Source: a virus
IMG/VR virus record: IMGVR_UViG_3300005529_000030
Location: 1 to 64,000 of that record
Reading direction: 5' to 3' (one strand)
DNA length: 64,000 nt
Within the stretch, counting starts at the first letter, position 1. Each line of letters begins with the position of its first letter. The notes under the pieces were generated by a model. That model saw only the letters and a program-made list of their open reading frames with translations, did no database searches and was not told where the DNA came from. The position numbers and the translations under genes were made by a program. This document shows, piece after piece, positions 41,478-47,379 of this stretch.

Positions 41478-42269
41478 ATGAACAGCGACAGCAGTTGGCT
41501 ACAGAAGAATTCGAGCGTCTCTTGCGTCGTTATGCCGACTCACAAACGACCCGAAATGTTGGCCTTGGCCTTGGAGAAAATCTCTAATTCGGAAAATCAA
41601 GTTGATGACGTAAGAATATTTGCAGATACTGACTGTAATATTGAGGAAGTAGAATTTGTCAGAGATGAGTATTGTCCAAGAGCGTTAATTTTTCATGCCC
41701 GTCCGCATGTTTCCGTTCCTTCGGGAATGTGGAACATACTTCAAGCCCTAAAAGCTGGATACGAGACTAAAGCCGAATACGTGTTTCTTATTGAAGAAGA
41801 CGTATTGGTGGGCCGAAATTTTTTCAATTGGCATTTTACGGCGCAGGCCGCCAATGATTATTTTGCTACGTGCGGTCGAAGAATGCGGCATCTGCCAAGC
41901 TATAATCAGTACACTAATCCTGGAAGTTGTTTTAAGCGCGGTTCTTTGTCTTTGGTAGTGGAACACATAAATGACAGTCTATTTGAAAACAGGCAAGCCT
42001 ATATGGACCGCACCTTTGGGCCGATGCCTGAAGTATCCGATTTAGATGACGGATTGATTAGACGCATAGCTAAATTTTATGGCCTATCCGTTCTTTACCC
42101 CGACACGCCACAATGCGCGCATATCGGGTTCAGAGCATATAATCATTACATGGATTGGGTTAATACAGGGAACATAGAGCAAAGAATTTCAAAACTCAGG
42201 ACCATGCTATCTGAAATAGACCCCAATAACAGGTTTACCGGAGACTTTGAGCCGATTTTACTCTCTTGA
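41478..42269 (+). CDS. GT-A fold glycosyltransferase
   Basis: VVMPT.KRPE.L..L; IEEDV; HIG. Confidence 0.7.
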   Translation: MNSDSSWLQKNSSVSCVVMPTHKRPEMLALALEKISNSENQVDDVRIFADTDCNIEEVEFVRDEYCPRALIFHARPHVSVPSGMWNILQALKAGYETKAEYVFLIEEDVLVGRNFFNWHFTAQAANDYFATCGRRMRHLPSYNQYTNPGSCFKRGSLSLVVEHINDSLFENRQAYMDRTFGPMPEVSDLDDGLIRRIAKFYGLSVLYPDTPQCAHIGFRAYNHYMDWVNTGNIEQRISKLRTMLSEIDPNNRFTGDFEPILLS

Positions 42270-42339
42270 GTGCTCTAAAAGCGGCTCGGTTTCGATTTCG
42301 TCCCAAGCCTTATTTGGCGTTGGGTTTAAAAGCGTAGTC

Positions 42340-42670
42340 TGCTCTTCAACCGTTGCGTTTGATTCTTCTTGTTTTTTCATTTTTCTTTCTTTTACGATTC
42401 TCAAAATTTTTTACGAAGCTGCCGTGTTTGCATAAGTACGATTCCGGGCACAGTGGACGAGTCAGTTAATTTACGAACCATAAAATCTTTGCAATCGCAG
42501 AAATATCTAGCAAAAAGATGGCCTACGCGAGTCACAATGTGAACTTCCGTAGGGTCGGATTCGGACGACACGTAAAAAATTTTACAAAAACCGTCTCCAT
42601 TTTGTTTTTTAGGCACAGTTAGTTTGATACTCCCAGGGCAAACCCTGGGATTCTGTTTGCCTAGTTGCAT
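42340..42670 (-). pseudogene. SWIM zinc-finger gene, 5' end displaced by IS and internally frameshifted
   Basis: CDCKDF in one frame, LCKH in another; native ATG lies at the other IS flank. Confidence 0.55.
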
Positions 42671-43725
42671 TGCTGCACCTCGGTTCCCAGAAACGGGACT
42701 ACCAATAGGCCCGAATCGGAGCGCACTGAGTCTCCGACTACTCCACCGATAGGCATCGCGCGTCCTGCGACGTTAAATGCCGCGTTAGCGTCTCGGTGGT
42801 CATTGTGTCCGCAATGTCCACAACGATATGACTTACCGTTGGGCTTGGTTAACTGATGGCATCGGGAGCACTCCTGCGATGTATACGCAGAATCTACTTC
42901 CAGCACCATTACCCCGCGCAAAGCGGCTTTGTAGAGAATGAATTGAAGCAACTGATAGAAAGACCACTGAGACGACTCGCTATAACGGCGAATCTTCCCC
43001 TTCCTGACGTTCTCCAATTTCTCTACGTTAATGCACCGACGATGTTTCGCGGCGTAGTCCACAATCTGCTTGGACACGACATGATTTTCGTACTTCGTGC
43101 GTCTTGATTGCTTATTACGAATCTCGTGAAGAAGACGCTTCTTCCCAAGACCCTGCAAATTTGCTTTCCGCCCCCTCCAGACTTCTTTTGTCTTTGCTGG
43201 GTTGAAACCAAGATGCAAAACTTTCCCGCTTTGTGGGTCTGCCAACGTTGCGACAGCACCAACCGAGTTACGGTCAACGCCCACTGTTCCCGTGCACACG
43301 AACTGCTTATCCGCTTTTGCGTTGTAGCAAACTGCTGCGTACCACCCGCCTTTGCGCATAAAAAATTCTGCACTACGGATGAATCCTACAGGCAGTCGCA
43401 ACCATATAACGGGCAGAATTTCTTTTTTGAATAGTGCAGGGATTCTCAACCCGCCTGCTTCCAACTTAATCTGCCTGCCTTTGTCTCCGGAGATAGGCAA
43501 CACGAGGTTGGTTACCGATTTGCATTTCTTATTTCTTTGGTACTTCGCAATCAGACTCTTGCTGATTGCGCTCGGTATCTCGTGATAATATTTACTAGAG
43601 GACTGGTCGCGATGAGCGAGCATTCTATCAACGCAGGCACGAGCCTTGGGTACCAAGGAATCAAGTACGGGACGAAGAAAATCGGGGCACTTGATTTTGA
43701 TACAGCAAGTCACTGTGTCTACCAT
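42661..43725 (-). CDS. tnpB: TnpB RNA-guided endonuclease (start MVDTV likely; frame open to 43983)
   Basis: RuvC-I GVDRN, RuvC-II VEKL, YTSQECSRC, CGHCG, RuvC-III DANAAFN. Confidence 0.9.
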   Translation of the reverse strand: MVDTVTCCIKIKCPDFLRPVLDSLVPKARACVDRMLAHRDQSSSKYYHEIPSAISKSLIAKYQRNKKCKSVTNLVLPISGDKGRQIKLEAGGLRIPALFKKEILPVIWLRLPVGFIRSAEFFMRKGGWYAAVCYNAKADKQFVCTGTVGVDRNSVGAVATLADPQSGKVLHLGFNPAKTKEVWRGRKANLQGLGKKRLLHEIRNKQSRRTKYENHVVSKQIVDYAAKHRRCINVEKLENVRKGKIRRYSESSQWSFYQLLQFILYKAALRGVMVLEVDSAYTSQECSRCHQLTKPNGKSYRCGHCGHNDHRDANAAFNVAGRAMPIGGVVGDSVRSDSGLLVVPFLGTEVQQCN

Positions 43726-44082
43726 CTTTGTGTGCGCGTCGTCTTTTGCACGAAGTTCCGCAGGAAGCTTCTTGCCGACCTTCCGTTTATTCGTGAGATG
43801 CTTACTGGCGTTGTTGATAGCATCGGCTGTGCGGTTGTTGAGTTTGGTGGCGATGCCGACCACATCCACTTTCTTCTCCGCTACCCTCCCACGGCTAACT
43901 TGAGCGCAGTTGTTGGCACTCTCAAAAGTAAGAGTGCTTCCGCCTATCTCAGCCGATTTGGTTCCTTCTATTGGGGTCGTCATGCTCGTACTCTTTGGTC
44001 TAGCGGTTTCTTCCTTTGCTCCGTAGGTGGAGCGACGTTAGAAATTCTCAAAACGTATGTCAGTCAACAAGGACGCGGCTAA
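43612..44082 (+). CDS. tnpA: IS200 Y1 HUH transposase (start uncertain)
   Basis: HCVY..VFCTKFRR, DHIH, LWS.GFF..SVG, catalytic Y in KTYVSQQ. Confidence 0.9.
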   Translation: MSEHSINAGTSLGYQGIKYGTKKIGALDFDTASHCVYHLCVRVVFCTKFRRKLLADLPFIREMLTGVVDSIGCAVVEFGGDADHIHFLLRYPPTANLSAVVGTLKSKSASAYLSRFGSFYWGRHARTLWSSGFFLCSVGGATLEILKTYVSQQGRG

Positions 44083-44088
44083 CCCAGA

Positions 44089-45066
44089 CTAAAGTCCGGG
44101 ATTGCGCCCGCGTATCGGTTCATCCAAATTAAAACCTAAACCTGCTTTATTGGCCGCTTCTCTTCTTGCTTCGATTTCTGTTCCGACTTCGGTGTACCTG
44201 CCTGTTACGGTAGAATCTTCATGTCCAATCCAAAAATGAACTAGACTGTCGGGAACCCCCTGCATACGCAAATGTGTAACCCTGAATCGCCGTAGACTGT
44301 GGAATCCGCCTAAAATGCCGCATTTTGCAAATTCACGTCGGTAAAAGCTTTCGGATTCAGGAAACATTAATCCGTTTTCAATCCTAAAATGCCGCTTTAG
44401 ATAGTCATTAAGCTCGCTAGGCAAGTCTACTTCTCTAATTCCTGCCTTCGTTTTCGGCGGCATCATTCTTTGGCCATCTCGTTGTCCGAATACGACTATT
44501 TTTGATTCGGACGGCACCCAATAATTAAAATTAGGCAGTCTTTCCTCATTCGTGGCCATAGTCAATGCCAAAGCCTCTTGAATTCGCAGCCCAGAACCCG
44601 CTAGAACGACCAAAAGGGCTTGGGTATGGCTTGGGGCCTTGGAAGTGCATTTAAATGCGTCTTGAACCGTCTGTGCGCTAGCCACGGGCCTTTTCTGTTG
44701 ATTCTTATCTACAATGGGCAAGTCCATAAATTCCGTGTTCCATTTATACGGATAGACTTGCTCACCCTCTGAATTAACGATAGAACTTCGTATCTGCTTG
44801 ATAATATTGACGTTAAGCTGAATCGTGCTGGCCGATAGTCCTTTGGCGGCCAAGATTGCCACAAGTTCTTTAACTTCTTTATTTCCAACGGAATCTACGG
44901 CAAGTACGCCTATATTCGGATTCAAATTGGTTTCAATTTGCGATTTATAGGTCTTGACTGTTTCGGGACGAAGCGGATTTCTTTTACGCTTTTGTCCATT
45001 TCGTAGCCACACTTCGGCCTGTTCCCTGAATGAAGGAGTTGTCTTGTTCTTTACTTTTGTTATCAT
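44089..45066 (-). CDS. tyrosine recombinase / integrase
   Basis: GLRIQE, KT, HSLRR, IGH, Y catalytic residues. Confidence 0.9.
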   Translation of the reverse strand: MITKVKNKTTPSFREQAEVWLRNGQKRKRNPLRPETVKTYKSQIETNLNPNIGVLAVDSVGNKEVKELVAILAAKGLSASTIQLNVNIIKQIRSSIVNSEGEQVYPYKWNTEFMDLPIVDKNQQKRPVASAQTVQDAFKCTSKAPSHTQALLVVLAGSGLRIQEALALTMATNEERLPNFNYWVPSESKIVVFGQRDGQRMMPPKTKAGIREVDLPSELNDYLKRHFRIENGLMFPESESFYRREFAKCGILGGFHSLRRFRVTHLRMQGVPDSLVHFWIGHEDSTVTGRYTEVGTEIEARREAANKAGLGFNLDEPIRGRNPGL

Positions 45067-45951: not shown

Positions 45952-46049
45952 AGTGTACTTGAGCGGCAATTGTCCGCCAACCCTAGCGCGTTCCTAAGCA
46001 AACTGGCAATTCTGAAAGTGTACTTGAGCGGCAATTGTTTGTCAACTCT
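45952..46049 (-). promoter_or_regulatory. tandemly duplicated sigma70-like promoter (65-bp period)
   Basis: AGTGTACTTGAGCGGCAATTGT at 45952 and 46017; minus strand TTGACA-17-TACACT and TTGGCG-17-TACACT. Confidence 0.65.
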
Positions 46050-47017
46050 TAAATTCGGTGTTCCCACAAACTGCTGTTGGCTATCCTATTTACCCTAACA
46101 AATGTCGCGCATTTAGGCAAGTCTTTTATGTTTTTAGCCCCGACATAGGCACAGGCCGACCGAATGCCGCCTGTAATTTCTTGAAGAGTGTTTTCTAGCG
46201 GACCGCGCCGAGGTAAATTAAATTCCCATCCTTCCGAAGCCCTGTAGTTTTTAAGGCCACCAGCTATCTCGGTAGCGCCTTTTTCTGATGCCATACCGTA
46301 AAATTCGGTGCCGTTTTCATCGTGACTGGCCAGCATTGCGCCAAGCATAACAAAATCCGCTCCAGCGGCAAAAGCTTTCACGACATCTCCTGGTGTACCA
46401 CATCCGCCGTCCGAGATGATGTGGCCGCCGAGACCGTGGGCCGCATCGGCACATTCAATTACTGCGCTTAATTGTGGGTACCCGACGCCAGTTTTAATAC
46501 GGGTCGAACAAGCTGCTCCGCTTCCTATTCCTACTTTCACGATGTCGGCTCCCGCTAGAATTAAGGCTTCGGTCATTTCTGGAGTGACGACATTTCCAGC
46601 CATGATTACAACATCTCTAAATTCAGACCTGATTTCACGAACTTTATCCACAACCGATTCTATGTAGCCGTTCGGTACATCCAAACATAAAAAACAACAA
46701 TCGTAATTAATATTAGAAACAAAGGAATTGAGACCTATACTTTTGATTAGAAAATCCGAATTAATCGAAGATGAGCCGTTAAAATTCTTCGGCATACAGG
46801 CTAACATGCCGCGCTCCGACATAACCCGCGCAACTTCAATAGTCGTGACCGAAGTCATATTGGACGAAATGATTGGCACTCCTGTCCACGTCCAATCAAC
46901 GTAGCGAAATTTAAAGGTTCGCAACAGATTTATTTCTTTCCGACTCTGAATTGTAGAGCGTTTCGGAACTAGAAGCACATCTTGAAAATCCAATTTTGTG
47001 TCTTGTATTAATCTCAC
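46049..47017 (-). CDS. guaC: GMP reductase
   Basis: KLDF.DVLL.PKRS, GIGSGAACSTR, ECADAAHG, SDGGC, FYGMAS, RASEG; GTG start. Confidence 0.9.
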   Translation of the reverse strand: MRLIQDTKLDFQDVLLVPKRSTIQSRKEINLLRTFKFRYVDWTWTGVPIISSNMTSVTTIEVARVMSERGMLACMPKNFNGSSSINSDFLIKSIGLNSFVSNINYDCCFLCLDVPNGYIESVVDKVREIRSEFRDVVIMAGNVVTPEMTEALILAGADIVKVGIGSGAACSTRIKTGVGYPQLSAVIECADAAHGLGGHIISDGGCGTPGDVVKAFAAGADFVMLGAMLASHDENGTEFYGMASEKGATEIAGGLKNYRASEGWEFNLPRRGPLENTLQEITGGIRSACAYVGAKNIKDLPKCATFVRVNRIANSSLWEHRI

Positions 47018-47019
47018 CT

Positions 47020-47379
47020 TTAACTCCAAAGCGGCAAATAATCGATGACACCCTGAACCTGTTTTGGCAATCCGCATATGGCCACGGCAGTTAAAAACTG
47101 TCCGTCGCCGTAGGCGGATAAATTTTCGTCATAAAATGCGACGTGACGCAGCTTTTTTGTTTTGGCTAAACGCATAATATGCTGCAATTCTGCCGAATCT
47201 CTTGCTTGTAAAATTATTATTGTTGTAGTATAAGCATTTAATAATTTACCATATTCAAAACAAAAAGCCGCAGCGGCATGCGCGGCCTGAGCCGTTTGCC
47301 GTCCTTTGGGTTGCTTTATCTTCCCGAAATCCGTTTCTATTGAATTAGCCACCACTACGTAAAGCTGTCTTTTTTCCAT
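47020..47379 (-). CDS. peptidyl-tRNA hydrolase PTH2-like
   Basis: KGR..AQAAHAA, IIL, TAVAI motifs. Confidence 0.7.
   Translation of the reverse strand: MEKRQLYVVVANSIETDFGKIKQPKGRQTAQAAHAAAAFCFEYGKLLNAYTTTIIILQARDSAELQHIMRLAKTKKLRHVAFYDENLSAYGDGQFLTAVAICGLPKQVQGVIDYLPLWS

Follow-up and report, generated by a model that had tools for sequence, protein, structure and literature searches.

An IS200/IS605 element clade of soil Acidobacteria and their phages that probably inserts at gene starts and restarts the interrupted gene from its own right end

What becomes of two neighbouring phage genes when an insertion sequence lands on the start codon of the second? The question is raised by a stretch of 64,000 nucleotides, hereafter the window, which makes up positions 1-64,000 of the 72.6-kb IMG/VR virus record IMGVR_UViG_3300005529_000030; all positions given here are window coordinates. 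Its minus strand carries, in order, a tyrosine-recombinase (integrase) gene at 44089-45066, an intact IS200/IS605 element of 1495 bp that runs from 44118 down to 42624, and a small open reading frame (ORF) at 42401-42670. Comparison with related elements indicates that this element belongs to a clade of soil Acidobacteria and their phages that probably inserts at gene starts and restarts the interrupted gene from its own right end. An initial annotation of the locus had described an IS605-type insertion with a TGAA target, and all the features it listed are present in the sequence where it had placed them.

Target, ends and the replacement start codon

The two junctions of the element are made up as follows.

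44121-44123, minus strand: orphaned original ATG of the downstream gene, which now starts an ORF of 15 codons, closed within the left end by a frame-0 stop 40 nt into the element; the homologue P0002 starts with MKLTVP.
44119-44122, minus strand: TGAA, the TnpA target, left cleavage site and predicted transposon-associated motif (TAM) of TnpB, read from the sequence, from the same flank in relatives and from CAAT by the IS608 rule.
44083-44118, minus strand: left end, with a 14-nt spacer, the guide CAAT (44104-44101) and the imperfect hairpin CCCGGAC-TTTA-GTCTGGG (44100-44083), whose stem shows compensatory changes in relatives.
42677-42681, minus strand: GAGGT, a Shine-Dalgarno-like motif 6 nt upstream of the replacement ATG, within the last tnpB codons.
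42668-42670, minus strand: replacement ATG, which opens a leader of 15 codons (MQLGKQNPRVCPGSI) that continues in frame into the host gene.
42624-42653, minus strand: right end, with the guide GAAT (42653-42650), the hairpin CCCAGGG-TTTG-CCCTGGG (42649-42632), AGTA and the cleavage site TCAA (42627-42624), kept across the recovered right ends.

The target can be deduced from the left guide. In IS608, the left cleavage site is TTAC with the guide AAAG and the right cleavage site is TCAA with the guide GAAT, and the pairs A+16:T-3 and A+17:T-4 join base 1 of the left guide to target base 2 and base 2 of the guide to target base 1 (PMC5934647 and PMC3201880, accessible parts). The pairing rule used in the initial annotation agrees with the published one as given there, and it leads from CAAT to TGAA. 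The right end had likewise been described as IS608-like, and its guide and cleavage site are indeed identical to the IS608 pair (PMC5934647, accessible part).

Relatives were collected by TnpB-based scans, which yielded 84 loci (12 viral, 66 metagenomic and 6 in Acidobacteria metagenome-assembled genomes, with four of the viral loci recurring among the metagenomic ones) at TnpB identities from 83% down to 33%. The same element clade is found in Acidobacteria chromosomes and in their phages, at TnpB identities up to 83%, and the loci L010-L015 (33-35% identity), which belong to another clade, have no recognisable ends. All recognisable related right ends consist of GAAT, a covarying hairpin and ATCAA, apart from L004/L067 (ATCATATCAA) and L041/L054 (ATCAC), and all related left ends found by pattern carry CAAT 12-16 nt after TGAA. 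Since the same ends and the same TGAA and TCAA boundaries recur at many different sites, the pattern is more than chance.

The five bases preceding the element were tabulated for 22 distinct relatives with both ends on one contig, five of which had their left ends placed by hand. They read ATGAA in 16 cases, GTGAA in three, and ATGAG, TTGAA and CTGAA in one case each. The TGAA predicted from the left guide is thereby the flank in 21 of the 22, and by our count 21 of the 22 can be read as ATG, GTG or TTG followed by AA; in the element-masked window, ATGAA makes up 181 of the 670 NTGAA sites. For scoring, the flanks were joined in silico and an ATG was counted if it was the first ATG of an ORF of at least 50 codons, three sites being unscorable where they run off their contigs. 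Such first ATGs were found at 9 of the 14 scorable ATG insertion sites, compared with 17 of the 181 ATGAA sites in the window (~9%) and 17 of 134 control ATGAA sites in other flanks, an enrichment with a binomial P of 3.5e-6 at a conservative n of 16. The sites with alternative start codons open ORFs of 105 codons (L007, GTG), 67 or more codons (L035, GTG) and 695 codons (L063, TTG), none of them with an in-frame start upstream, and at the L063 site a stop lies one codon upstream.

A narrower account would have TnpA simply recognise the five nucleotides ATGAA, the link with start codons then arising from this sequence and from purifying selection against insertions in the middle of genes. The A at position -5 is present even at sites with a short or no downstream ORF (L050, L053, L021, L023), all six left flanks of a near-identical subgroup read ATGAA (L008, L048, L050, L066, L079, L045), and a weaker selectivity outside the core tetranucleotide is described for IS608 (PMC5934647, accessible part). 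However, the sites of L007, L035 and L063, which deviate at -5, are themselves starts of long ORFs, and target preference leaves the conserved ribosome site and in-frame ATG of the right end unexplained. We regard it as rather unlikely that target preference is all there is, and note that it is compatible with insertion at gene starts followed by restart rather than exclusive of it.

Orthologues and domain profiles bear on where the interrupted genes begin. In the xerC-like gene of L082, five of the seven orthologues compared, which come from related genomes, start with ATG AAR at the exact codon where L082 reads ATC AA/A (the slash marks the element end), and in the left flank of L082 the orthologous promoter-like and GGGAG (Shine-Dalgarno) region leads up to ATGAA, behind which lies a degenerate left end. 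Three proteins encoded in the flanks, an NTP transferase (L038), one with an integrase SAM-like domain (L082) and a C39 peptidase (L005), match their Pfam profiles from profile position 1-5 onwards, the match starting within residues 4-7. At L005, the stop of the upstream gene is the TGA of an ATGA overlap, and a search of viral contigs for relatives of the downstream gene returned only the same contig. The flank ORFs of L024, L085, L064 and L071 have signal-peptide-like starts by eye; the paralogues of L085 have N-termini too divergent to place its start.

The right ends were compared in 43 distinct contexts of right end plus flank, after L008 had been dropped as a spurious pattern match and the end of L004/L067 had been moved by 5 nt to the second ATCAA. 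In 41 of the 43, an ATG lies 3-21 codons before the element end in the frame ATC AA/N, with no stop in between; whether other copies keep the frame open through the right end was a check proposed in the initial annotation, and these 41 do. One of the two exceptions, L071, has GTG at the same place, and the other, L004, is decayed and frameshifted by a 4-nt duplication. An ATG in either of the other two frames is present in 2 and 3 of the 43 contexts. The leaders measure 3, 14, 15, 16, 17, 18 or 21 codons and the frame is kept in all, while the ATG shifts in place and frame with respect to the tnpB stop: it lies 8 or 11 nt before the stop, overlaps it as ATGA, or follows it by 20 nt (L004). Of 31 distinct leaders, 27 have a GGAGG-, GAGGT- or AAGGA-type motif 4-9 nt ahead of the ATG, and a flank ORF of at least 50 codons continues the ATG frame in 24 of the 43 contexts, compared with 9 and 4 for the other two frames.

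Taken together, the junctions suggest a model for the insertion. TnpA, led by the left guide CAAT, would integrate the element 3' of TGAA by the single-strand 'peel and paste' handling of its ends, and the surviving copies overwhelmingly sit after NTG-AA, between bases 2 and 3 of codon 2, and in the orientation of the gene. The terminal ATC AA of the right end would then take the place of the displaced ATG AA, from which it is one base off. Because the right end carries a ribosome site of the GAGG type, overlapping the last tnpB codons, and an ATG in the frame of the displaced start, the interrupted gene could be restarted as a fusion in which Met1 is changed to Ile and preceded by a leader from the element, 15 residues long here and 3-21 codons long in relatives. 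The left end closes the incoming frames, one by the TGA of the target and the other two by TAGs of the hairpin region. Of 21 distinct left ends, 20 bring frames 0 and 2 to a stop within at most 85 nt, in most cases at the TAG in the hairpin loop and at a TAG or TAA just past the hairpin; the remaining frame is closed by the TGA in the target.

Some relatives show further peculiarities. L004/L067 (2923-4270) is a decayed copy in a viral contig of 108-152 kb, with a truncated tnpA and a left end deleted up to ATGAA; its right end bears the 4-nt duplication (ATCATATCAA), and its replacement ATG, 20 nt after the tnpB stop, stands behind its own GGAAGGAG. L006/L081 (3001-3132), in a 32.8-kb viral contig, is a tnpB fragment of 44 residues, 93% identical to that of the window and without recognisable ends, and is probably a remnant. 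A soil subgroup (L017, L026, L028, L034, L037, L041, L046, L082, L084) has a module of ~190 nt in which TTGAC(A/C)-17-TAAAGT points towards tnpB; the module is found ~100-250 nt left of tnpA and is bordered by a degenerate outer left end on one side and, on the other, by a second hairpin that resembles a left end (guide CAAC). The contigs of this subgroup join left and right flanks in three ways, by recombination between copies or by chimeric assembly. In L058, which has inserted into another tnpB, the insertion is in frame, and the far part of the older tnpB is still an open frame when read from the ATG of the newer element.

Genes, guide RNA and the interrupted neighbours

The longer features of the locus are the following.

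43612-44082, plus strand: tnpA, a Y1 (HUH) transposase of 156 aa (Pfam Y1_Tnp, 2.9e-25; IS608 TnpA structures 2vhg/2a6m, 1.7e-14).
42661-43725, minus strand: tnpB, an RNA-guided nuclease of 354 aa (Pfam Cas12f1-like TNB domain, 1e-20; PDB TnpB structures 9nzp, 2.5e-16, and 8bf8, 3.3e-05).
42624-42740, minus strand: predicted omegaRNA scaffold, consisting of two stems in the tnpB 3' end (42739-42694), a single-stranded linker and the right-end hairpin (RNAalifold).
42604-42623, minus strand: first 20 nt of the interrupted gene past the element, the predicted omegaRNA guide and, in element-free genomes, its predicted target, from position and published TnpB biology.
44089-45066, minus strand: integrase gene, whose last 9 codons and stop (TAG 44091-44089) come from the left end of the element (ORF; Pfam Phage_integrase, 1.5e-07).
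42401-42670, minus strand: leader-fused downstream ORF of 89 aa, native from 42625 (ORF; homologue search; tblastn of P0002).

The element is an ordinary member of the IS200/IS605 family in all of the defining features that can be tested. It encodes a Y1 HUH TnpA and a TnpB with a D-E-D triad and a zinc ribbon, has subterminal imperfect hairpins, no terminal inverted repeats and no target duplication (flanks TGAA and ACTAAC), and both of its cleavage tetranucleotides pair with their own guides (CAAT with TGAA on the left, GAAT with TCAA on the right). The motifs HIH and a C-terminal Tyr (KTYV) are seen by eye in TnpA, and in an alignment of TnpB with three relatives the RuvC triad D237, E321 and D398 is invariant, as are the CxxC pairs C372/C375 and C388/C391. 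An Rfam scan of 42000-45000 gave no match at E <= 1, and the element therefore lacks the group I intron ribozyme that marks an IStron, its 1495 bp leaving no room beside tnpA, tnpB and the ends. The transposase and nuclease genes point away from each other, with 114 nt of antisense overlap between their 5' ends, counted to the likely tnpB start. Translation of tnpB probably begins with MVDTV at 43725 rather than covering a whole 440-aa ORF. The tnpB frame is open for 86 further codons through tnpA, up to 43983, and is closed in L003 and of variable length in other relatives; we rejected this antisense extension as part of the real gene, its openness not being conserved. On the plus strand, the right-end hairpin and a T-rich run (42631-42650) score as intrinsic-terminator-like and could stop convergent transcription from the plus-strand gene at 41478-42269.

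The predicted guide RNA overlaps the replacement start. In an RNAalifold analysis of 18 elements, 19 of 23 base pairs, in three stems, are kept through changes on both sides; the scaffold matches no Rfam family. The ribosome site and ATG sit in the linker between the predicted omegaRNA stems and the right-end hairpin. If the element works like published TnpB systems, it would take its guide from the 16-20 nt that follow 42624 and have (A)TGAA as TAM. A promoter-like, sigma-70-like site is located upstream of the integrase gene and no minus-strand terminator-like site is present before 42243, a layout that weakly fits read-through transcription, and tnpB and the guide RNA are probably transcribed in this way from the host promoter. 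TnpB with the TAM (A)TGAA, guided by the first ~16-20 nt of the host gene past the right end, would cleave alleles that lack the element and help the element to be copied again.

A more ambitious reading, which we put forward tentatively and do not favour, is that the clade is a dedicated 'start-codon cassette', with an (A)TGAA target tuned to a start codon plus a Lys/Asn codon, a right end that restarts the gene, a left end that closes frames and a borrowed host promoter, and that it conducts an intron-less, RNA-guided homing in phages. The ribosome site and ATG would then lie inside the omegaRNA scaffold, so that each transcript would either be processed or bound by TnpB or be translated into the host protein, not both. 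This choice may represent a conflict or a regulatory switch, comparable to the one that IStrons face between splicing and making guide RNA. Element-free alleles could not easily escape by mutation of the TAM, because the TAM contains the start codon itself.

On the upstream side, the integrase ORF reads across the left junction and ends at the TAG in the left hairpin loop, which exchanges its four last residues, TNCA, for nine, PIRGRNPGL. The initial annotation had correctly let the left end supply the integrase stop and had counted eight new residues. The uninterrupted end that it had rebuilt, LDETNCA followed by a stop, agrees with the related integrase of L002, which ends four residues past the shared GLGFNL, close to the rebuilt end.

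On the downstream side, the replacement ATG lies 5 nt before the tnpB stop (42663-42661), and its frame runs through the right end into the 89-aa ORF, as expected from the earlier proposal of an in-frame ATG at the tnpB stop. The only homologue outside the ORF's own cluster, P0002, is 57% identical; its N-terminus, MKLTVP, equals the native start that had been rebuilt for the interrupted gene, and its Met aligns with the Ile of the last full codon of the right end. The label of a SWIM gene found no backing, neither the window ORF nor P0002 having a Pfam match up to E = 10; by eye, P0002 contains CDC...CKH, and in the window gene CDC and CKH lie in different frames. A second protein, P0001, is 99% identical to window 42404-42670 and has Gln6 changed to His in the element-encoded leader, a change that falls on base 1 of the right guide GAAT and might cripple right-end cleavage and immobilise the element.

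Further along the minus strand, 46049-47077 encodes a phage protein of the IMPDH/GMP-reductase family (Pfam 3.8e-62), possibly an auxiliary gene of nucleotide metabolism.

Counter-evidence and rival explanations

Several observations weigh against insertion at gene starts with restart of the interrupted gene. Common descent of the elements inflates the counts, the 41 of 43 right ends not being independent events, and some metagenomic contigs pair left and right flanks differently, possibly through chimeric assembly across the repeat. The left-flank sites of L050, L057, L023, L053 and L021 are followed by ORFs of only 2-36 codons, that of L045 has an earlier in-frame ATG, and L058 is inserted after CTGAA within another tnpB. 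L083 was rejected as a start-codon insertion, since its element is located 17 codons upstream of the kdsA start as set by 11 orthologues, a placement that holds independently of the orthologue L100. The L017 soil subgroup stands outside the 22 tabulated left flanks, as its left end did not fit the search pattern. The empty junction of this phage is reconstructed from the sequence: a blastn search of 42300-44500 against 50,697 phage records gave no match, an exact 30-nt pattern of the right flank gave none in viral contigs, and the only integrase relative in viral contigs, L002 (57% identity), has a different downstream gene, with no element-free copy among them. Finally, a tblastn comparison with P0002 places a frameshift in the downstream gene between 42467 and 42435, with residues 1-55 aligning in one frame and LCKHG(K/S)FV in another (42406-42467, minus strand), where LCKHG is half of a CxC...CxH motif. 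The region is identical in all contigs from the sequencing runs, and the frameshift is therefore not an assembly error. The gene may be dead or decaying, and the insertion thus not silent in this phage. The expectation of a near-silent insertion without splicing is borne out at the level of the family, where right ends carry a ribosome site, an ATG and an open frame and Rfam gives no match, and is uncertain here, where the gene is frameshifted.

The frameshift is also one reason to ask whether the element in this phage is a relic, a fixed and immobile passenger next to a decaying pseudogene. Eleven sequencing runs contain the region; contigs from the runs X8, X9 and X10 cover one or the other junction of the element, and the contig from run X2 spans the whole stretch. 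These contigs, from runs of two studies, show the element unchanged at both junctions and contain no excision joint, a result that gives no verdict on excision, as contigs drop rare variants. The element is a single copy in the 72.6-kb record, and the Gln-to-His change of P0001 falls on the first base of its right guide. Against a relic, the ends, guides, hairpins, HUH and Tyr motifs of TnpA and D-E-D triad of TnpB are all intact in the window, and the loss of rare variants from contigs leaves room for excision. For the clade at large, an indirect sign of mobility is that near-identical elements are found at different sites within three groups of relatives (L021/L022/L023, L045/L048/L050 and L057/L058). 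We consider a relic in this phage unlikely.

Least probable of all, and in our view a poor account of the comparative data, is that the right-end ATG, GAGG and open frame are by-products of constraints on the TnpB C-terminus, the omegaRNA and the hairpin, with the copies killing or truncating dispensable genes and restarting nothing: such a view can draw on the heavy structural constraint on the region (covarying stems, invariant GAAT...ATCAA), on the frameshifted gene of the window and on shared ancestry that inflates the counts, but it fails to accommodate a frame that is kept relative to the element end over seven leader lengths while it changes relative to tnpB, the separate GGAAGGAG and ATG of the decayed L004 beyond its tnpB stop, the rarity of ATG in the other two frames, and interrupted genes that are full-length with intact domains (xerC-like recombinase, NTP transferase, C39 peptidase, amino-acid permease). 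Insertion at gene starts with restart from the right end is the explanation that we prefer.

Significance and comparison with known systems

Insertion sequences are usually taken as gene breakers, and within this family the IStron is the known exception, in that it is spliced from the mRNA. The comparative data point to a second and simpler solution, in which insertion on a start codon is made good by a new start codon carried in by the element, at low cost in operons and in compact phage genomes. If true, this would account for the persistence of TnpB elements in phages, and it would mean that many N-termini are wrongly annotated, the proteins being fused to leaders. It would also provide a natural case of a guide-RNA scaffold and a translation start on the same nucleotides, as well as a directly testable TAM ((A)TGAA) and guide position for a compact TnpB of 354 aa. 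Start-codon replacement by the right end of an IS200/IS605 element is not described in the literature searched, which included the accessible part of the OMEGA review PMC13565253 and left subscription papers mostly outside its scope. The combination of a conserved in-frame restart with a start-codon target, well supported by the sequence comparison, thus appears as a variant that we did not find in print.

The element is closest in design to IS608 of Helicobacter pylori. Both combine a Y1 TnpA with a TnpB, both have subterminal imperfect hairpins, each preceded on its 5' side by a 4-nt guide that pairs with a cleavage site, they have the same right-hand pair of guide and cleavage site (GAAT/TCAA), and insertion occurs 3' of a tetranucleotide without duplication. 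The two differ in the left guide and target, which are CAAT and TGAA here and AAAG and TTAC in IS608, and in the distance of the cleavage sites from the hairpin feet, 18 and 8 nt here and 19 and 10 nt in IS608. Unlike IS608, the element has tnpA and tnpB in divergent orientation with a 114-nt overlap of their 5' ends, and its right end carries an open leader in frame with the interrupted gene, complete with ATG and ribosome site, features of which the accessible parts of PMC5934647 and PMC3201880 make no mention for IS608.

With ISDra2 TnpB, the element shares an intact RuvC triad and a structured 3' region that overlaps the end of tnpB. By expectation, it would also share a guide taken from the right-end flank and a TAM equal to the transposon target; TnpB homing is the subject of the preprint of Meers et al. 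(10.1101/2023.03.14.532601, accessible part). The sequences are distant (8bf8, E 3.3e-05), and the TAM would be (A)TGAA here, whereas that of ISDra2 is TTGAT. A further difference is that the scaffold of the element also holds the translation start of a host gene, so that its uses as guide RNA and as host mRNA may compete.

IStrons, in which an IS605 or IS607 element is combined with a group I intron (PMC4227781 and 10.1101/2023.11.20.567912, accessible parts), offer the nearest parallel in outcome, namely an element that is harmless to the gene and keeps TnpB and its guide RNA. The element described here has no intron, and in contrast to the splicing of IStrons its rescue would act at translation, through a new start codon, and only at the starts of genes.

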